Positions 7,416-14,487 of a stretch of 14,487 nucleotides of DNA are shown piece after piece. This DNA comes from an uncultured Oscillospiraceae bacterium. Its GTDB lineage: Bacteria > Bacillota > Clostridia > Oscillospirales > Oscillospiraceae. The notes beneath the pieces are model-generated. The model was not told the DNA's origin. It saw only the letters and a program-made list of their open reading frames with translations, and did no database searches. Location of the stretch: the NCBI GenBank assembly GCA_964398305.1, contig CAYNMN010000049.1:1-14487 (forward strand). Reading direction: 5' to 3'. Position 1 is the first letter of the stretch. Each line of letters begins with the position of its first letter. The position numbers and the translations under genes were made by a program.

Positions 7416-7520
7416 ATGTGCGGCGAGCTTGCGCGGCATCTGCCGAAGCTGCGGGAGATCATGAAGCTCTCGCAGGGGGAGCTTGCGGAGCTCTGCGGTA
7501 TTTCGCGCACGAGGATATGA
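7416..7520 (+). pseudogene. Truncated XRE-type helix-turn-helix gene fragment (34 codons)
   Basis: MCGELARHLPKLREIMKLSQGELAELCGISRTRI* contains the helix2-turn-helix3 pattern (LSQGELAELCGISRTRI) of XRE/Cro-C1 HTH domains but stops within the domain. It lies in a lower-GC decayed stretch. Confidence 0.35.
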
Positions 7521-7545
7521 CACGGACATCTTCACTGAACCAACA

Positions 7546-7938
7546 ATGAAGGGCAAACTTGGCGTAAATGCCATGAAAGCAGATCATCACCTATACGACC
7601 ATATTCTGTATGATTCCACCAACGAGCGGGATTTTGCAACAGAGCTTGATACGCGAACCGAGGTGGCAGTCTATGTAAAACTGCCGAACGGATTCTATAT
7701 CTCCACACCGGTTGGTAAATACAATCCTGACTGGGCAATTGCGTTCAAAGAAGGCAGTGTCAAGCATATCTATTTTGTCGCAGAGACAAAAGGCTCTATG
7801 AATTCTATGCAGCTTCGTATGGTTGAGGAGGCAAAAATACACTGTGCCAGGGAGCACTTCAAAGCCATTAGCTCTGACAGCATAGTGTATGATGTGGTGG
7901 ATAGTTACGAGAGTTTGTTGAACAGGGTTATGAGATAA
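7546..7938 (+). CDS. PD-(D/E)xK nuclease-domain fragment resembling the C-terminal endonuclease module of restriction-enzyme Res subunits; probable gene remnant
   Basis: The ~130-aa ORF starting MKGKLGVNAMKADHHLYDHILYD contains ...YNPDWAIAF...HIYFVAETKGS..., a classical PD...(D/E)xK arrangement. It is too short for a complete restriction enzyme, abuts the truncated HTH fragment, and sits in DNA with GC well below the window average. Confidence 0.4.
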   Translation: MKGKLGVNAMKADHHLYDHILYDSTNERDFATELDTRTEVAVYVKLPNGFYISTPVGKYNPDWAIAFKEGSVKHIYFVAETKGSMNSMQLRMVEEAKIHCAREHFKAISSDSIVYDVVDSYESLLNRVMR

Positions 7939-8193: not shown

Positions 8194-9183
8194 ATGCCGC
8201 TGCATTTTATACAATCGGATATCGTTGACGTCAGTGCCGACGCGATCGTGAGCTGCGGGAACAGCGCCATGACCGACGAGGGCGGGGTGAGCGGCTGCAT
8301 ATACCGGGCCGCGGGCAGCGCCGTTGCGGACGAGTGCGCGAGGATCGGCGGCTGTGCCCCGGGCGACGCGGTGGCGACCTCCGCCGGAGAGCTCAAGGCA
8401 AGGTATATCATCCACACCGTTGGCCCGATCTGGGACGGCGGGCGCTCAGGCGAGGAGTTCGTCCTGCGTCAGTGCTATAAGCGCGTCCTCGCCAAGGCCG
8501 CGGAGCTCGGCTGTGCCTCCGTCGCCATGCCGCTCATCGCCTCCGGGCGGTACGGGTATCCCCGGGAGCTCGCAAAGCGCGTCGCCTCCGAGGAGATCAG
8601 CGCGTTCCTCGAAGCTCACGGCGACATGGAGATCACGATGGTGCTGAGCGGCGAGGCCGGGCATATCAGCCGCGTGAGGGCGTCCAACGCCGACCTGTCC
8701 ACGTTCATCGCGAGAAACTTTATAGAGCCCGCGAGTGCCGACGAGCATGAGCCGTACTACGACCGGGACAGGACACGGTTCAGCATCTCGCCGCCGGGCG
8801 CCGGGCTCTACAAGACGCTCGACGAGATGCTCGCCGCGCGCAGTAAGCCGTTCAGGGATATGCTCCGCGATCTCATGACCGAGGCGCAGGTGTCGGACGC
8901 CGAGCTGTACAACAAGGCGGGCGTCTCGCGCCAGACCTTCAACAAGATATGGAACCAGGCCGGCTACAAGCCGAGCAAGAACACCGCCCTGTCGCTTGCC
9001 ATCGGTTTGGAGCTCAACTACGACCAGACGCTCGACCTGCTCGGCACGCTGGGCTACACGCTCTCGCACAGCGTGCAGTTCGACATGATCGTGGAGTACT
9101 TCATAAGGCGCGGCTGCTACGATCTCTTCGACATCAACTATTCCCTCGACGATTACGGCGAGCCGCCGCTCGGCCTTGTATGA
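8194..9183 (+). CDS. Macro domain (MacroD/YmdB-type ADP-ribose binding/hydrolase) fused to a C-terminal XRE-family HTH DNA-binding domain
   Basis: The N-terminus carries SCGNSAMTDEGGVSGCIYRAAG (cf. MacroD N.AN..L.GGGV.GAIHRAAG), YIIHTVGPIWDGG and ASVAMPLIASGRYGYP (cf. SIAFPAISTGVYGYP). The C-terminus carries LRDLMTEAQVSDAELYNKAGVSRQTFNKIWN followed by KPSKNTALSLAIGLELNYDQTLDLLGTLGY, the five-helix XRE pattern. A rho-independent terminator follows the gene. Confidence 0.75.
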   Translation: MPLHFIQSDIVDVSADAIVSCGNSAMTDEGGVSGCIYRAAGSAVADECARIGGCAPGDAVATSAGELKARYIIHTVGPIWDGGRSGEEFVLRQCYKRVLAKAAELGCASVAMPLIASGRYGYPRELAKRVASEEISAFLEAHGDMEITMVLSGEAGHISRVRASNADLSTFIARNFIEPASADEHEPYYDRDRTRFSISPPGAGLYKTLDEMLAARSKPFRDMLRDLMTEAQVSDAELYNKAGVSRQTFNKIWNQAGYKPSKNTALSLAIGLELNYDQTLDLLGTLGYTLSHSVQFDMIVEYFIRRGCYDLFDINYSLDDYGEPPLGLV

Positions 9184-9218
9184 GGCTCTCCGCCCGCGCG
9201 TAAAATATAATAATGTAT

Positions 9219-9253
9219 CCCTCGATCGGTCAAACGGTCGGGGGATGTTTTTT
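9219..9253 (+). terminator. Rho-independent terminator of the macro-HTH gene
   Basis: ccctcgatcg-gtcaaa-cggtcggggg forms a 10-bp stem (two G-U pairs) with a 6-nt loop, followed by atg and tttttt (9248-9253). It sits 36 nt after the stop and directly abuts operator copy 1. Confidence 0.45.
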
Positions 9254-9270
9254 GTCAATCGCGGATTGAC
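9254..9270. promoter_or_regulatory. Dyad operator copy 1, GTCAATC-gcg-GATTGAC (7-3-7 inverted repeat), in the promoter region of the vWA gene
   Basis: Perfect 7-bp inverted arms with a 3-bp spacer. The right arm contains a -35-like TTGACC (9266-9271). A -10-like TATCCT lies 20 bp downstream. The vWA start codon is 83 nt downstream. Confidence 0.5.
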
Positions 9271-9352
9271 CACGGTGTGCAGGGAGTGAAGTATCCTATG
9301 ATCACAGCGGTAGAGCGCAGCTCCCGCAGCAATAAAAACGGAGGATGCTATT

Positions 9353-9994
9353 ATGAACGAAAACCTGACAGAGCTTGTGTTCATACTCGACCGCAGCGGA
9401 TCTATGTGCGGCATGGAGGAGGACACCATCGGCGGCTTCAACTCGATGCTCGACAAGCAGAAGAAGGAGCCGGGCGACGCGCTGGTCACCACGGTGCTCT
9501 TCGACAACGAGTACGAGACCCTGCACGACAGAGCGCCGCTGCAGTGCGTGAGAGCGATGACGGCGAACGACTACTCGGCGCGGGGCAGCACGGCGCTGCT
9601 CGACGCGGTCGGCAGAGCGATCTCCCTCATCCGGATCGCCCAGAAGCACACGCCGGAGGCCGAGCGCCCCGGCAAGACGGTCGTGGTCATCATCACGGAC
9701 GGCTATGAGAATTCGAGCCGCGAGTACAGCATCGAGCAGGTGCGCGAAATGATCTCAAAGCAGACCGGGTTGGGCTGGGAGTTCCTGTTCCTCGGCGCGA
9801 ACATGGACGCCGTGCAGGCCGCCGGCAGGATGAACATCCGCGCCGACAGAGCCGCGACCTACCGGCCCGACGGCGCCGGCACCCGCGCCAACTACGACGC
9901 CGTGGACATGGCCATCCGCTACTCCCGAGCCGGACGCCACTTCTCCGACGAGTGGAGGGCGCCGGTCGACGAGCGCAACAACAGGGACTATTAA
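9353..9994 (+). CDS. Small von Willebrand factor A (vWA) domain protein (213 aa)
   Basis: LVFILDRSGSM (MIDAS D-x-S-x-S), GSTALLDAVGRAI and VVVIITDGYEN motifs. GGAGGA lies 7 nt upstream of the ATG. Confidence 0.8.
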   Translation: MNENLTELVFILDRSGSMCGMEEDTIGGFNSMLDKQKKEPGDALVTTVLFDNEYETLHDRAPLQCVRAMTANDYSARGSTALLDAVGRAISLIRIAQKHTPEAERPGKTVVVIITDGYENSSREYSIEQVREMISKQTGLGWEFLFLGANMDAVQAAGRMNIRADRAATYRPDGAGTRANYDAVDMAIRYSRAGRHFSDEWRAPVDERNNRDY

Positions 9995-10000
9995 AACTCG

Positions 10001-10203
10001 GCGCCCGTTTGAGCTCAAGCAGCGCGAGCTCTGCGCCCTTAGGTTCCCTCGCGTATTCCCTGAACATAGTGAAGGGAATACGCTGAGGGACCTTAGGAGG
10101 CGGTGACGTATCGGCAAACACGGCGCCGGGAACATTCACCGAGCTTTGCACGTCGGTAGTATCCCGCCTGAGCTCAAGAAAAAAGTGTCAATCGCGGATT
10201 GAC
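10001..10203 (+). repeat. Structured intergenic repeat copy 1: long imperfect hairpin (10037-10097), AGGAGG, ~90 nt conserved tail, and dyad operator copy 2
   Basis: Begins 7 nt after the vWA stop. The hairpin is cccttaggttccctcgcgtattccct / loop gaacatagtga / agggaatacgctgagggaccttagg (~23 bp with two single-nucleotide bulges and a T-T mismatch). AGGAGG follows the 3' arm directly. It is ~90% identical to copy 2. A 10-bp direct repeat tgagctcaag occurs at 10009-10018 and 10169-10178. Confidence 0.7.
10187..10203. promoter_or_regulatory. Dyad operator copy 2, GTCAATC-gcg-GATTGAC, upstream of the 62-aa ORF
   Basis: Identical 17-mer. TTGACC is at 10199-10204 and a -10-like TACATT lies 20 bp downstream. 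The ORF start is at 10280. Confidence 0.5.
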
Positions 10204-10279
10204 CCGGGCGAGGGACGGATTTGGTACATTATGAATAGAAGCTGCAAAAACGACGGCTCGAAAGAAAGGGAGGACTGCT

Positions 10280-10468
10280 ATGGATGCTTACGGGAAAACG
10301 AAATTCAACACCTGCCTTGACGAATTCGAAAGAACACTGACCGACCTGCGCAGGTGCGGGTCGCTCACAGAGAAGGATCTCCGCATACTCTGCCGCCGGG
10401 TTGAGGAGATGCGCCGGGCCGGCAACGACAGCCCGGACATGACAGGTCGGAGCCGGCTGCGCCCGTGA
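10280..10468 (+). CDS. Small hypothetical protein (62 aa), predicted helical and charged
   Basis: Strong RBS AAAGGGAGG 7 nt upstream of the ATG. MDAYGKTKFNTCLDEFERTLTDLRRCGSLTEKDLRILCRRVEEMRRAGNDSPDMTGRSRLRP. It lies between the two repeat copies, and its stop codon overlaps the start of repeat copy 2. Confidence 0.5.
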   Translation: MDAYGKTKFNTCLDEFERTLTDLRRCGSLTEKDLRILCRRVEEMRRAGNDSPDMTGRSRLRP

Positions 10469-10648
10469 GCCTGCGCCCTTAGGTCCCCTCGCGTATTCCC
10501 TGAACATAGTGAAGGGAATACGCCGAGGGACCTTAGGAGGCGGTGCCGTGCCGACAAACAAGGCGCCGGGAACATTTACCGACCTCTGCACGTCGGTAGT
10601 ATTCCGTCCGCGATCCGAAACAAGAAAAAGTGTCAATCGCGGATTGAC
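10459..10648 (+). repeat. Structured intergenic repeat copy 2: hairpin 10477-10537, AGGAGG, conserved tail, and dyad operator copy 3
   Basis: Aligns to copy 1 with ~11 substitutions and two small indels over ~175 bp. The bulged base in the hairpin changes in both arms (t to c on the left, t to c on the right) but the predicted structure is preserved. Confidence 0.7.
10632..10648. promoter_or_regulatory. Dyad operator copy 3, GTCAATC-gcg-GATTGAC, at the head of a ~430-nt leader preceding the SPFH gene
   Basis: Identical 17-mer. TTGACC is at 10644-10649 and a -10-like TATGAT (5/6 to TATAAT) lies 20 bp downstream. The next plus-strand gene starts at 11115. Confidence 0.45.
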
Positions 10649-11114
10649 CATGACCGTAAACGGATACGGTATGATACGTTTATAAGGTGAGCTACGCGAA
10701 TCTTAGAAACAGAAGATGAGCTATTGCGAACCTTTTTAGCTGAGGCCAAGTAGCCGGTCCGTGGCGTCGATGAGTCGCCGGACCGCGTCGCCGGGAGCCA
10801 TAAACTCCGGCGTGCAGGCCAAGGCCAGGCAACCGGTAGGGTAGATGAAGTTTCCCGAGGCCGCATAAAGTCCGCCCGGACGCGTAAGACCCCTTGTCCG
10901 GAACGTGAAGTGAGCCTGCTGAGGACGGATACCGTCGGACAGTCCGAAAAGCCGGGACACAGTCCCCGCCGGAGGGTCAGCCGACTCAATTCCTTCGCCG
11001 CTCATCAGCGTGGACGCGGCCGACAAATAATCTCCGCTTGACGGCGCTCCGGCCGACAGCGGTACATATAGACCGACGACATTCGCTGCGGATAATGAAA
11101 GGAGTGCTGCACAC

Positions 11115-12215
11115 ATGACAATTACAATTAAAGACGGAGAGCGCGGGGTGTTGACGAGGGACGGGTGCTTCCTCAAACTACTCACACCCGGAAGACACAG
11201 CGGCGACGACGACTGCGAGGTCGAGGTCGTCAAAGCCACCCCCGGAGAGAGATACAACTCTCTCCACCCTGTCGAGCCGCTGCTCGGCGACCCCGAAGCC
11301 TCGAAACAACTGACGACCGTGGATGTGGCGCCCAACGAACTCGTGTTCGTGTCACACTACGGAGCCGCCAGACTCGCCCTCTCCACCGGGCACTATGTGC
11401 TCTGGACACTGGGCCGCGACCTGGATGTCGAACGCGTCGACATCACCGACCCCCTCGTGGACGAGGAGACGCTTTTGCGCCTCACCCCCGCCCTCGCGAA
11501 AAGCCTACTCAACTGGGAAAGCGTCGCCGAATACGAACAGGGACTGCTGTTCGTGAACGGCGTACTCGCAAAAACCCTCGACCCGGGGCGCTACGCCCTG
11601 TGGGCCAACTCCCTCGCCGACTACGAAGTCAAAACCGTCGACCTGCGCCTTCAGCAACTCGACGTGAGCGGCCAGGAGCTCCTGACCGCCGACAAGGTCA
11701 CGGTCCGCCTGAATGTCGTCTGCACATTCAAAGTGACCGACACCCTCCGCGCCGCGACCGGGTTCTCCAACCACGCGGAGCAACTGCGCACACTTGTCCA
11801 ACTCGCACTGAGACGCGCCGTGTGCGCTCTCACACTCGACGAGCTCCTTGCGAGCCGTGAGGATGTCGCCGAGGGCATCCTCTACGAACTAAAGACCCGT
11901 GAAGCCGAATACGCCGTGACATTCACGGACTCGGGAGTGAAGGACGTAATCCTTCCCGGCGAAATAAGGGACATAATGAACTCGGTCCTACTCGCCGAAA
12001 AACGCGCACAGGCAAACGTAATCGTCCGCCGAGACGAGGCCGCTTCCATGCGGAACAAACTCAATTCAGCGCGATTACTCGAAGAAAACCCGACACTAAT
12101 GCGCCTGACCGAACTGGAGTCCATTGAGAGAATCTGCGAGCACGTGGGGTCCCTCAGCGTGGGCGGTAGCGAAAACCTATTGGGCGAGCTTGCGAAGCTC
12201 GCGGGCAAGAGCTGA
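11115..12215 (+). CDS. SPFH/band-7 (stomatin/prohibitin/flotillin-like) domain protein, with no N-terminal transmembrane helix
   Basis: The core reads VDLRLQQLDVSGQELLTADKVTVRLNVVCTFKVTD...EQLRTLVQLALRRAVCALTLDELLASREDV...VKDVILPGEIRDIMNSVLLAEKRAQANVIVRRDEAASMRNKLNSARLLEENPTLMRLTELESIERI. Two N-terminal SPFH-start-like motifs are seen (DGERGVLTRDG..LLTPGRH and EQGLLFVNGVLAKTLDPGRYAL). AAAGGAG lies 10 nt upstream. No hydrophobic segment is present. Confidence 0.75.
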   Translation: MTITIKDGERGVLTRDGCFLKLLTPGRHSGDDDCEVEVVKATPGERYNSLHPVEPLLGDPEASKQLTTVDVAPNELVFVSHYGAARLALSTGHYVLWTLGRDLDVERVDITDPLVDEETLLRLTPALAKSLLNWESVAEYEQGLLFVNGVLAKTLDPGRYALWANSLADYEVKTVDLRLQQLDVSGQELLTADKVTVRLNVVCTFKVTDTLRAATGFSNHAEQLRTLVQLALRRAVCALTLDELLASREDVAEGILYELKTREAEYAVTFTDSGVKDVILPGEIRDIMNSVLLAEKRAQANVIVRRDEAASMRNKLNSARLLEENPTLMRLTELESIERICEHVGSLSVGGSENLLGELAKLAGKS

Positions 12216-12275
12216 CGCTCTGCCCGGAGTTCGGGGGCGAACACCTCGCCCCCCGGAAATCGCACACATTTGTCC

Positions 12276-12305
12276 TTGACACACGAATTGTTCACACCGC
12301 ATAAT
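12276..12305 (+). promoter_or_regulatory. Sigma-A-like promoter for the ARH operon
   Basis: TTGACA (12276-12281), an 18-bp spacer, then CATAAT (12300-12305). GGGAGG is at 12313-12318 and the ATG at 12328. No copy of the GTCAATC dyad is present. Confidence 0.4.
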
Positions 12306-12327
12306 GGATAAAAGGGAGGCTGTGCAT

Positions 12328-13113
12328 ATGAAAGGCGCAATACTCGGAGACATAGTCGGCTCAGTCTATGAGCGACACAACACAAAGAGCAAGGCGTTTC
12401 CTCTGTTCTCGCCCGTGGGTCGCTTCACGGACGACACGGTGCTGACGTGCGCCGTGGCGAAGGCGTTAATGAGCGACGACGCCGACGTCGACCTTCTCGA
12501 AGAGCTGACCTACCGGCTGCAGCAGTTCGGGCTGCTCTACCCGCACGCGGGGTACGGCGGAGCCTTCAAGCGGTGGTTCCGCTCCGACTACCCGCAGCCG
12601 TACAACTCCTGGGGCAACGGCGCGCCTATGCGCTGCTCGCCGGCCGGCTTCGTTGCCGGCAGCGCGGAGAAGGCCTACGCGCTCGGCGAGGCCACGGCGG
12701 AGCCCACACACAACCACCCGGAGGGGCTTAAGGCCGCGGGGCTCACGGCGGAGCTCGTCTGGCGAGCCCGCCACGGCGAGAGCCGGGAGACTCTGCGCGA
12801 GAGGGCGTTTGAGCTCTATGAGCTGCCCGCGCTCGACGAGGTGCGCCCGACCTACCGCTTCCACGTCTCCAGTCAGGAGACAATGCCCGTCGCCCTCGCC
12901 GCGTTCTTCGAGAGCACGGACTTTGAGGACGCAATACGCAACGCGATCTCCGTCGGCGGAGACAGCGACACCATCGGCGCCATCACCGGCGCAATAGCCG
13001 AGGCGTACTACGGCGTGCCGGACGAGCTCTGGCGGAAGGCGACACTCTACCTCGACGACTACCTGCTGAAAATCGTTACCGAGTTCTATGCCTTCGCCGA
13101 GGCGCGGAGCTGA
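12328..13113 (+). CDS. ADP-ribosylglycohydrolase family protein (ARH/DraG-like), paralogue 1
   Basis: The start is taken at MKGAILGDIVGS (the track ORF begins 24 nt earlier, but GGGAGG sits 8 nt before this ATG and paralogue 2 starts at the same motif). ARH family motifs are present: FTDDTVLTCAVAKAL, GNGAPMRCSPAGF, THNHPEG and GGDSDTIGAITGAIAEAYYG. Confidence 0.8.
   Translation: MKGAILGDIVGSVYERHNTKSKAFPLFSPVGRFTDDTVLTCAVAKALMSDDADVDLLEELTYRLQQFGLLYPHAGYGGAFKRWFRSDYPQPYNSWGNGAPMRCSPAGFVAGSAEKAYALGEATAEPTHNHPEGLKAAGLTAELVWRARHGESRETLRERAFELYELPALDEVRPTYRFHVSSQETMPVALAAFFESTDFEDAIRNAISVGGDSDTIGAITGAIAEAYYGVPDELWRKATLYLDDYLLKIVTEFYAFAEARS
12653..13033 (+). repeat. 381-bp tract 100% identical to 13479-13859 (internal part of ARH paralogue 1); near-identity extends back to 12591
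   Basis: Direct base-by-base comparison at an offset of 826 bp. The tract 12591-13033 versus 13417-13859 shows only 3 mismatches, all within the first 62 bp. The flanking coding sequence on both sides is strongly diverged. Confidence 0.9.
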
Positions 13114-13150
13114 ACGGGTTCATTCAAACCGGACTATAAGGAGGGCAAAA

Positions 13151-13939
13151 ATGAAGGGTGCAATAATAGGCGACATCGTGGGCTCGATCTACGAGTTCGA
13201 CAATCTGCGTCAGAAGGACTTCCCGTTCTTCGGGAAGAAGTGCAAGTTCACCGACGACAGCGTGATGACCTGCGCTGTGGCCGAGGCGCTCATGAACGCA
13301 GACAGGACCGACGGCGACCTTTTCGAGGGGCTTGTTGAGAGCATGCAGGAGCTCGGCAACGCTTATCCGTACCGCGGGTATGGGCTGCGCTTCGGCGACT
13401 GGCTGGACTCCGACGACCCGCAGCCGTACAACTCCTGGGGCAACGGCGCGCCTATGCGCTGCTCACCGGCCGGGTTCATTGCCGGCAGCGCGGAGAAGGC
13501 CTACGCGCTCGGCGAGGCCACGGCGGAGCCCACACACAACCACCCGGAGGGGCTTAAGGCCGCGGGGCTCACGGCGGAGCTCGTCTGGCGAGCCCGCCAC
13601 GGCGAGAGCCGGGAGACTCTGCGCGAGAGGGCGTTTGAGCTCTATGAGCTGCCCGCGCTCGACGAGGTGCGCCCGACCTACCGCTTCCACGTCTCCAGTC
13701 AGGAGACAATGCCCGTCGCCCTCGCCGCGTTCTTCGAGAGCACGGACTTTGAGGACGCAATACGCAACGCGATCTCCGTCGGCGGAGACAGCGACACCAT
13801 CGGCGCCATCACCGGCGCAATAGCCGAGGCGTACTACGGCGTGCCGGACGAGCTCTGGCAGGAGGCGGCGCTCTACCTCGACGCCCGCCTGCTGAAAATA
13901 GTCAGCGACTTCTACGCCTTCGCCGAGACGAAGGCGTAA
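13151..13939 (+). CDS. ADP-ribosylglycohydrolase family protein (ARH/DraG-like), paralogue 2
   Basis: The start is taken at MKGAIIGDIVGS, with AAGGAGG 6 nt upstream. The N-terminal ~95 aa are about 50% identical to paralogue 1, the middle ~145 aa are identical, and the last ~25 aa diverge again. It lies 37 nt after paralogue 1. Confidence 0.8.
   Translation: MKGAIIGDIVGSIYEFDNLRQKDFPFFGKKCKFTDDSVMTCAVAEALMNADRTDGDLFEGLVESMQELGNAYPYRGYGLRFGDWLDSDDPQPYNSWGNGAPMRCSPAGFIAGSAEKAYALGEATAEPTHNHPEGLKAAGLTAELVWRARHGESRETLRERAFELYELPALDEVRPTYRFHVSSQETMPVALAAFFESTDFEDAIRNAISVGGDSDTIGAITGAIAEAYYGVPDELWQEAALYLDARLLKIVSDFYAFAETKA
13479..13859 (+). repeat. 381-bp tract 100% identical to 12653-13033 (internal part of ARH paralogue 2)
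   Basis: See the paired feature. The identical tracts also generate identical spurious antisense ORFs in the six-frame track (12743..12934 and 13569..13760). Confidence 0.9.
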
Positions 13940-13957
13940 GACAACAAAGGAGGCATT

Positions 13958-14347
13958 ATGGATCGGGATTCGTGTGCCATAGCAAAACAACGCTACATAG
14001 ACTTTTCGACTGAAGAGAATCGGAGGCTGTTTTTCGAAACGATCCGTTTGTGCGCGGAAGACAGGACCTGGATCCACTCCCGTGGGAGAGATGATTCCGG
14101 CCGGACTGCGTTGTGTGTTGTGATTACTGATGAAGGCGTGTTCGGAGCGCTTTTTACCTCTATCGAGAATGCGGTAAGGATACCAAGGCAGGTTCAGGAG
14201 CAGTATCCGGCTGTCATATGCTCGCCCATAAACCATGTGATAGACGCGGTAATGGAATATGGTCTTAAGGGGATTGTCTTTGACCCATACAGCGCGCAGC
14301 CTATCTTCATTGAAAGAAATAATTTGAAAGCAATACTCCAATACTAA
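13958..14347 (+). CDS. Hypothetical protein (129 aa), lower GC than its neighbours; a faint resemblance to small SseB/YbjN-like or immunity-type proteins is not demonstrable here
   Basis: AAAGGAGG 5 nt upstream of the ATG and only 18 nt after the ARH-2 stop, so it is likely co-transcribed. The sequence MDRDSCAIAKQRYIDFSTEENRRLFFETIRLCAEDRTW...GIVFDPYSAQPIFIE has mixed composition. GC is about 48% against about 66% for the ARH genes. Confidence 0.55.
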   Translation: MDRDSCAIAKQRYIDFSTEENRRLFFETIRLCAEDRTWIHSRGRDDSGRTALCVVITDEGVFGALFTSIENAVRIPRQVQEQYPAVICSPINHVIDAVMEYGLKGIVFDPYSAQPIFIERNNLKAILQY

Positions 14348-14487
14348 ACGTATTCCGGGTCAGCGAGGATTGTTTAGGGAAAACAAATCAGAGAGGAAGA
14401 GTGATAATTGGATAACGTTACAACATTGACCACAGCACTGATCGACAAGCTCAACGAGGATGTAAGAAACGGGCTTTACGAGCACGG

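Follow-up and report, generated by a model that had tools for sequence, protein, structure and literature searches.

A twice-occurring hairpin and promoter spacer at a copy-variable orphan open reading frame of an uncultured Oscillospiraceae bacterium

Why does one strongly folding spacer occur twice in a short gene array, each time at a stop codon? The question is raised by contig CAYNMN010000049.1 of an uncultured Oscillospiraceae bacterium, which was analyzed here over its entire length of 14,487 nt (hereafter the window). It contains two copies of a hairpin-bearing element, one behind a gene for a YegL-like vWA protein and one behind an orphan open reading frame (ORF) of 62 codons (ORF62). 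Both copies are co-oriented with the genes, lie at or in the stop codon and precede a promoter with a dyad-symmetric sequence. The window holds two copies, their hairpins and three identical dyads, and the homology is confined to this module. We see roughly even chances that local duplication of a hairpin-plus-promoter spacer gave rise to the two copies, which recombine and thereby vary the copy number of the orphan ORF. The variable unit is 440 bp long and consists of ORF62 plus one repeat copy.

The cores of both copies (145 nt each; Table 1) align without gaps at 90% identity. Leftward, a weak homology ends at about 9998 and 10444, some 40 nt before the hairpin, and contains a 9-nt indel; the last nine codons of ORF62 align with the sequence just 3' of the vWA stop, and the ORF62 stop codon falls within this left homology of copy 2. 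Rightward, the copies share a linker with a 5-nt indel and an identical dyad, remain about 55% identical over the next ~40 nt of the promoter, and then lose all similarity. The identity amounts to 71/73 positions in the hairpin, 55/65 in the next 65 nt and 19/19 in the dyad. The preliminary description of this locus had reported two structured copies after stop codons, which we could reproduce, and about 90 conserved nucleotides 3' of each hairpin. The latter are conserved as sequence (85% identity over ~70-90 nt) and not as structure: the folds are not significant (z-scores of -1.6 and -0.9), and copy 1 adopts another fold there than copy 2. No similarity at the DNA level (z -0.85) and no significant similarity at the protein level was found between 10206-10470 and 10651-11114. 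ORF62 and its promoter are thus unrelated to the sequence after copy 2, which excludes a recent duplication of the whole 440-bp unit. A simple tandem duplication was rejected as well, the units not being alignable over their whole length. The preliminary description had set a simple tandem duplication without additional copies against its own proposals; additional copies were indeed not found in the collections searched (see below), while the tandem duplication failed on the unrelated sequences that follow the copies. A coding function of the element was also rejected: copy 1 has a stop in the plus frame, the two copies lie in different frames with respect to their upstream genes, and the GC content at third codon positions (GC3) is not coding-like. 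Copy 2 has one open frame per strand.

Each hairpin has 25-nt arms around an 11-nt loop (gaacatagtga) and forms 23-29 pairs. From base to tip, the stem contains 3 bp, a T-T mismatch, 4 bp, a bulge in the left arm, 5 bp, a bulge in the right arm and 11 bp. The bulged bases of hairpin 1 are located at 10045 and 10084, and over the 73 nt the copies differ only at both bulges, each time by a T-to-C exchange. The hairpin coordinates, the loop, the single bulge on each arm, the T-T mismatch and the exchanges at the bulges had been given in the preliminary description and were all verified. Folded in isolation, the 73-nt segments reach -46.1 kcal/mol in copy 1 (z -8.5) and -45.5 kcal/mol in copy 2 (z -7.4), a stability attained by none of 200 shuffled sequences (0/200). 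The opposite strand reaches -41.0 and -43.3 kcal/mol, the plus strand thus folding slightly better. No other local inverted repeat within 20 kb of the locus comes close to the two hairpins in length. They start 42 nt past the vWA stop (copy 1) and 8 nt past the ORF62 stop (copy 2). As described before, the 3' arm runs into AGGAGG (10095-10100 and 10535-10540) with no start codon after it; this hexamer is partly the 3' complement of the extended lower stem (CUGC...GCGG). The earlier statement that the hairpin is not a classical terminator also holds. The stem is followed by AGGAGGCGG and by no U-tract, and the terminator scan, which detects the canonical terminator behind the Macro-domain gene, detects neither hairpin. 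The scan predicts no plus-strand terminator at 9250-11400 and none between either upstream gene and its hairpin.

The dyad TGTCAATCGCGGATTGACC, with a 17-bp core GTCAAT-N5-ATTGAC, occurs in three exact copies (0.01 expected). The preliminary description had correctly placed one after each element copy; a third, upstream of the vWA gene, had been overlooked. In all three units, the dyad center lies ~42 nt upstream of the predicted transcription start. The promoters, which we infer from sequence, each pair TTGACC with a -10-like hexamer (Table 1). Directly 5' of dyad copy 0 stands the intrinsic terminator, where both other modules have the hairpin element, and an order of stop codon, hairpin and promoter is found at 9215-9271 and again at 12233-12305. 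The dyad is plausibly bound by the protein of the adjacent Macro-domain gene, which ends in a weak helix-turn-helix (HTH) match. If so, the vWA gene, ORF62 and possibly the SPFH and ADP-ribosylglycohydrolase (ARH) genes may form one ADP-ribose-related regulon, and this hint of ADP-ribose-responsive regulation is possibly of more biological interest than the hairpin.

In the reading that we favor, the module would consist of an irregular, stable hairpin of 25-29 bp at the upstream stop codon, ~70 nt of looser sequence with an A-tract, and a dyad-overlapped promoter. The vWA and ORF62 transcripts would run into the hairpin at the end of their message. On the RNA, the hairpin could act as a barrier to 3' exonucleases, as a site for double-strand-specific processing and/or as a weak terminator without U-tract, and would set the upstream message apart from the following promoter with its own regulation. 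At the dyad promoter behind it, regulated transcription would begin anew, with the Macro-HTH protein as the plausible regulator. This reading as operon punctuation is suggested because the terminator at 9215-9248 and the hairpin at 12233-12253 hold the same position before promoters. Among the roles proposed in the preliminary description, a hairpin for 3'-end formation, processing or stability of RNA appears the most plausible.

Intercistronic hairpins such as the early RNase III sites of phage T7 (R1.1) and the enterobacterial REP/BIME 3' stabilisers punctuate operons, and the element would by analogy work most like these. The likeness comprises a long irregular stem, a location in a presumably transcribed spacer after a stop codon, the lack of a U-tract and an orientation with the genes. 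An irregular stem of at least ~20 bp in a co-transcribed spacer, as is expected of RNase III sites and 3' stabilisers, is present (23-29 pairs, -46 kcal/mol). Such a hairpin would be expected to set the 3' end of the upstream mRNA or to shield it. Compared to REP sequences, two copies are known instead of hundreds, the palindrome is longer (61 nt versus ~20-40 nt), a GTAG-type head is lacking, no IS200-like or RAYT gene is found in 20 kb, and a regulated promoter is carried along.

Variation among strains was analyzed in at least 18 contigs of the same species with 99.2-99.8% identity. Six assemblies that span the interval share the arrangement of the window, with one 440-bp unit. Logan contigs (k=31) end at 10075 or begin at 10494; these breakpoints lie exactly 30 nt from variant sites 10045 and 10524, respectively, as expected if the 38-nt hairpin apex forms a two-copy node in the assembly graph. 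Two contigs deviate. Contig L018, from SRR8925746, has the order vWA gene, left arm of copy 1, apex, right arm of copy 2 and third promoter, and lacks ORF62. Since it runs unbranched where the other Logan contigs break, this allele is considered real, and the allele without the 440-bp unit is the dominant one in that sample. Contig L007, a MEGAHIT contig (k=119) from ERZ27239218, starts with the last 45 nt of ORF62, followed by the left arm of copy 2, the apex and the right arm of copy 1; behind this chimeric element come promoter 1, ORF62, copy 2 and the SPFH gene. Such a junction cannot be produced from k-mers common to both copies and points either to one more unit in tandem or to a circle.

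The crossovers of L018 and L007 both fall between 10045 and 10084, in the hairpin apex. The two contigs show that the direct copies have recombined inside the identical apex in natural populations. The apex is also the only stretch of at least 31 identical nucleotides between the copies; site-specific recombination, RecA-mediated exchange and hairpin-stimulated replication slippage all predict crossovers there. Junctions within the repeated segment that change the copy number, as tandem duplications have them, are present in L018 (no unit) and L007 (extra junction). Repeats in direct orientation at a distance of 440 bp, alleles that carry one unit or none, a junction that points to at least two units, crossovers in the longest block of identity and gene conversion in neighboring paralogues together resemble a tandem or segmental duplication with unequal crossing-over and concerted evolution; the interior with ORF62 differs from it in having no counterpart after the second repeat.

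If the favored reading is true, a terminator-like hairpin and a regulated promoter would have been copied as one spacer module, direct repeats would render a small gene copy-number-variable within a species, and the orphan 62-aa ORF would sit on a ready-made regulated promoter. It opens no new class of elements, being a known kind of thing. Its use would lie in the annotation of operons in metagenome-assembled genomes (MAGs) of high-GC Clostridia, and in an explanation of the assembly breaks at this locus.

Table 1. Positions of the elements, dyads and genes in the window, in plus-strand order.
Feature	Position	Strand	Remarks
Type III restriction endonuclease, C-terminal fragment	7483-7938	+	First in plus-strand gene order
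Macro-domain gene with weak C-terminal XRE/Cro-type HTH	8194-9183	+	Pfam Macro, E=1.7e-33
Canonical intrinsic terminator	9215-9248	+	14-pair stem and T-tract, after the Macro-HTH gene
Dyad copy 0	9253-9271	+	Upstream of vWA; -10-like TATCCT at 9292-9297, 20 nt past TTGACC
vWA gene, YegL-like	9353-9994	+	Stop codon 9992-9994
Left flank of copy 1	9998-10030	+	Weak homology to 10444-10470, 9-nt insertion
10-bp direct repeat TGAGCTCAAG	10010-10019 (left), 10169-10178 (right)		Flanks copy 1 only
Element copy 1	10031-10175	+	145-nt core repeat
Hairpin 1	10037-10097		Arms 10037-10061/10073-10097; extendable to 10031-10103
Apex identity block, 38 nt	10046-10083 = 10486-10523		Holds the crossovers of L018 and L007
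Dyad copy 1	10186-10204	+	Preceded by A-tract 10176-10185; -10-like TACATT at 10225-10230, 20 nt past TTGACC
ORF62, 62-aa orphan ORF	10280-10468	+	GGGAGG 7 nt 5' of ATG; stop codon 10466-10468
Element copy 2	10471-10615	+	145-nt core repeat
Hairpin 2	10477-10537		Arms 10477-10501/10513-10537; architecture of hairpin 1, C at both bulges (10485, 10524)
Dyad copy 2	10631-10649	+	Preceded by A-rich linker 10616-10630; -10-like TATGAT at 10670-10675, 20 nt past TTGACC
Gene-poor stretch, ~430 nt	10690-11114	+	Between third promoter and SPFH gene; no convincing ORF
SPFH/Band-7 gene	11115-12215	+	Heads the downstream genes, followed by the two ARH genes
Two ARH paralogues	12304-13113, 13088-13939	+	Downstream of SPFH
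SseB-like gene		+	Last in plus-strand order, after the ARH pair; 129 aa

Further copies of the element were sought with an exact-pattern query, the hairpin apex with its loop left free. This query yielded only one unrelated hairpin (L019) among 185,579 GTDB species-representative genomes, no match in IMG/VR, and one unrelated soil hairpin (L024) with dissimilar flanks in the JGI metagenomes. BLASTn in distant mode gave no matches in the PLSDB plasmids and INPHARED phages. A concatenated six-frame pseudo-protein of the element, aimed at ORFs mis-called over other copies, had no match among 5.8 billion proteins. Within 20 kb of the locus, the two known copies are the only ones. The search for copies elsewhere that had been recommended in the preliminary description therefore came back empty in GTDB, IMG/VR, JGI, PLSDB, INPHARED and the 20 kb of the locus. 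The hairpin in L019 (contig CATYEP010000063.1, a Eubacteriales MAG, 487-531) is a perfect one, GGCGTATTCCCTGA-N7-TCAGGGAATACGCC. It has 14 nt of each arm in common with the element apex and shares nothing in its flanks; it was rejected as a relative of the element and judged a chance similarity.

A number of observations weigh against the favored reading. The copy searches did not cover the rest of this species' genome, which limits the negative result, and the metagenome scan missed JGI contig L008, which is known to hold copy 1, so that the JGI collection is incomplete for this organism. The promoters are non-canonical, with -10-like hexamers at an unusual spacing of 20 nt from TTGACC, and the HTH_26 match in the Macro protein (E=0.0013-0.0037) stays under the Pfam cutoff. 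The RNA-level role is one that we infer from the position and stability of the hairpin only, and the sequence discriminates poorly between a role as RNA and as DNA, as all stem pairs are Watson-Crick in the bulged register and the stem can fold on both strands. A compensatory stem substitution, as the covariation check proposed in the preliminary description would look for, occurs in none of the strain sequences compared, and one variant breaks a pair. This variant, 10088 G>T in contig L003, leaves a hairpin that still folds at -40 kcal/mol. L003 diverges from the window over the equivalent of 9030-10212 (22 differences, ending just past dyad 1) and is identical to it over 10213-11080. The divergent part appears to be a recombination tract with its boundary inside the module. 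Within it, 7/285 positions of the copy-1 spacer (9995-10279) are changed (2.5%), compared to 7/169 (4%) in the spacer upstream of vWA and 2/642 (0.3%) in the vWA gene. The spacer rates give little evidence of purifying selection on individual bases.

The neutral appearance of these copy-1 spacer changes, the broken stem pair and the missing covariation suit the strongest rival, which we consider possible and on the whole unlikely. It holds that the element is a functionless by-product, namely an old intergenic duplication kept similar by conversion, in which an inherited palindrome has no role and only the promoter and the dyad matter. Concerted evolution in the same contig speaks in its favor. 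The two ARH paralogues are ~88% identical overall and 99% identical over a 300-nt tract (12582-12881 and 13408-13707), and other strains differ from the window at matching positions of both paralogues, which indicates ongoing gene conversion in this contig. In the favored reading, too, gene conversion and homologous exchange, demonstrably active in this locus, account more economically for most of the similarity of the element copies than would strong selection at each position. A possible third, decayed module just upstream of SPFH (~10872-10961 and 11028-11110) would also fit an old duplication. Its support is marginal: the semi-global score with module 1 is matched by 9/478 genomic windows and 2/500 shuffles, and the score with module 2 is not significant. 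The hairpin itself speaks against this rival. From one copy to the other it has clearly changed less than the 65 nt next to it (2 versus 10 differences), and both of its differences are at the bulges. A palindrome of -46 kcal/mol is costly in replication, so that decay or deletion would be expected if it were useless. Moreover, its placement at two stop codons mirrors that of terminators elsewhere in the locus.

A site-specific recombination site had been among the proposals of the preliminary description. That ORF62, promoter and element form a cassette moved at the hairpin by a distant recombinase, in the manner of integrons or Xer/dif modules, we regard as quite improbable. This proposal draws on the element at both cassette boundaries directly after stop codons, the empty-site allele in L018, the reciprocal junction in L007 (a circle or a second insertion), the location of both crossovers in the 38-nt apex (11-bp arms around an 11-nt spacer), a unit interior that is unrelated to the sequence after copy 2, and an orphan ORF as cassette content, as in chromosomal integron arrays. 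In attC sites, R' (5'-RYYYAAC-3') and R'' (5'-GTTRRRY-3') pair as the R box in a hairpin of 57-141 nt, which has an extrahelical G and T on one arm, ~6 bp apart, and a central spacer with 5-6 unpaired nt in each arm (PMC5027507). The element resembles attC sites and Vibrio cholerae repeats as a bulged hairpin 3' of a small orphan ORF, with similar copies and variable cassette presence (PMC5027507), and its 61-73 nt directly 3' of an ORF agree in size and position. It differs from attC arrays by a promoter of its own in the unit, by having only two sites and by the lack of IntI. No attC core motif was found by regular expression over 9985-10210 and 10430-10655, the stem foot being CCTTAGG/CCTTAGG. 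An attC identity was rejected on this ground and on the geometry, with one bulge on each of the opposite arms, 5 bp apart, and a lone T-T mismatch in place of an unpaired central spacer. No integron integrase or recombinase domain, and no integrase, resolvase or transposase, was found among the genes of the window or the same-species loci (~20 kb), and no other cassette or copy occurs in any collection searched. What stands of the proposal is that natural recombinants join in the apex, and there the only identity block of at least 31 nt would direct homologous exchange or slippage to the same place. Core spacers of tyrosine recombinases are typically 6-8 bp, and the 11-nt spacer here is longer.

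In its fullest form, which appears very unlikely to us, this proposal would describe an integron-independent micro-cassette system in a spore-forming, Clostridia-like host, with the hairpin as recombination site. The unit would comprise a right half-site, a regulated promoter, a small orphan ORF and a left half-site. A recombinase encoded elsewhere would cut such units out in circular form and put them back in at the 11-11-11 apex; L018 would represent the empty site and L007 the junction of a circle or of a second insertion. The positive support for such a system comes down to the two crossover locations, which homology explains equally well. Hairpin-directed recombination of micro-cassettes in Clostridia would be remarkable if true.

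The preliminary description had also suggested a small non-autonomous mobile repeat, similar to MITE or REP elements, that carries a promoter and operator; that such a repeat, or a Correia-like one, inserted twice we hold for very improbable. The Correia elements (CREE) of Neisseria offer a comparison: they are ~100-155 bp long, intergenic, can supply promoters to the adjacent gene and have inverted repeats whose transcript forms an RNase III substrate, and they are bounded by terminal inverted repeats, duplicate a TA target and number more than 100 dispersed copies (PMC2649163; PMC2229807). With ~150-200 nt, a long internal inverted repeat, an intergenic position after stop codons and an outward promoter, the element is Correia-like (PMC2649163; PMC2229807). 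It differs in that its palindrome is internal, with no terminal inverted repeats, and in that a true target duplication is lacking and no dispersed copies were found; a third copy is found neither in the collections searched nor in 20 kb of the locus, and no transposase or RAYT gene is nearby. An exact 10-mer direct repeat, TGAGCTCAAG, so near copy 1 is improbable by chance, and it had been likened to a target-site duplication. Its right position was given correctly in the preliminary description, while the left is 10010-10019 and not 10009-10018. It contains the palindrome TGAGCTCA, and its left member is missing at copy 2. As a target-site duplication it was rejected, because it occurs only at copy 1 and the homology between the copies runs beyond both repeat positions, which therefore mark no element ends.

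A palindrome that is bound as double-stranded DNA and has no role as RNA seems highly unlikely. It would serve as an additional long operator or as an architectural site, recognized for example by the Macro-HTH protein or by some other regulator. The fully Watson-Crick stem, about equally stable on both strands, and its location ~90-150 bp upstream of the dyad promoters in two of three modules would agree with such a site. However, arms of 25 bp with fixed bulges are not read by dimeric proteins, and duplex DNA has no bulges. Moreover, the vWA promoter has a dyad without a palindrome, and no dyad half-site recurs in the hairpin.

A cis-regulatory leader RNA, attenuator or riboswitch-like structure acting on the downstream gene, also among the earlier proposals, is hardly credible in spite of the strong structure and the SD-like (Shine-Dalgarno-like) AGGAGG at the stem's 3' foot, because the promoter and dyad lie 3' of the element, which is thus not in the leader of the following gene, because no start codon follows AGGAGG, because the sequence 3' of the hairpin folds neither significantly nor alike in the two copies, and because Rfam gives no match even under lax filters. 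Rfam 15 returned no match for the whole window at E<=1, and at E<=10 for 9985-10700 only a meaningless microRNA at 15 bits. Known structured RNA families (riboswitch, leader, small RNA, ribozyme, intron domain) were rejected for want of a covariance-model match.

The DNA of the host has a GC content of 62%. The minus strand of the window carries the his operon and spoVAC, from which the host is concluded to be a spore-forming Firmicute. The fragment that opens the plus-strand gene order encodes an isolated endonuclease domain of ~130-150 aa, with a GC3 of 0.50 compared to 0.85 in the adjoining genes. It looks like a remnant of a degraded restriction-modification system at the edge of an island. 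A reading of the neighborhood as a defense system was rejected, as this fragment is the sole PADLOC match.

At 8702-8794, 16 differences set the window apart from all other contigs of the species. They cluster in the linker that joins the Macro domain to the HTH and presumably represent an allele specific to the window or a small recombined patch. The closest homologue of the vWA protein has only 64% identity. The pair of Macro and vWA genes is kept in distant Clostridia (L020-L023), and the hairpin element was not found in their vWA loci. ORF62 has a GC3 of 0.75 and no homologue was found for it in protein searches.

The stretch between the third promoter and the SPFH gene has stops in every plus frame and no Rfam match, and neither strand of 10682-11114 folds significantly. 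On the minus strand of the stretch, gene callers predict an ORF of 89-114 aa, with an atypical GC content by codon position. No tRNA or tmRNA was detected by scanning.

The SPFH stop codon is followed by an 8-bp GC hairpin without U-tract (12233-12253) and a near-consensus promoter (TTGACA-18-CATAAT, 12276-12305). At the upstream end of the first ARH gene, AGGGAGG is located at 12314-12320 and an ATG at 12328-12330. Given this AGGGAGG and the promoter, the first ARH gene probably starts at 12328-12330 and not at 12304. Behind the second ARH gene, contig L002 has ~155 extra nt (~13661-13834), including a repeated segment of 55 nt. In contig L003, a gene of 204 aa (13738-14352) replaces the SseB-like gene of 129 aa.

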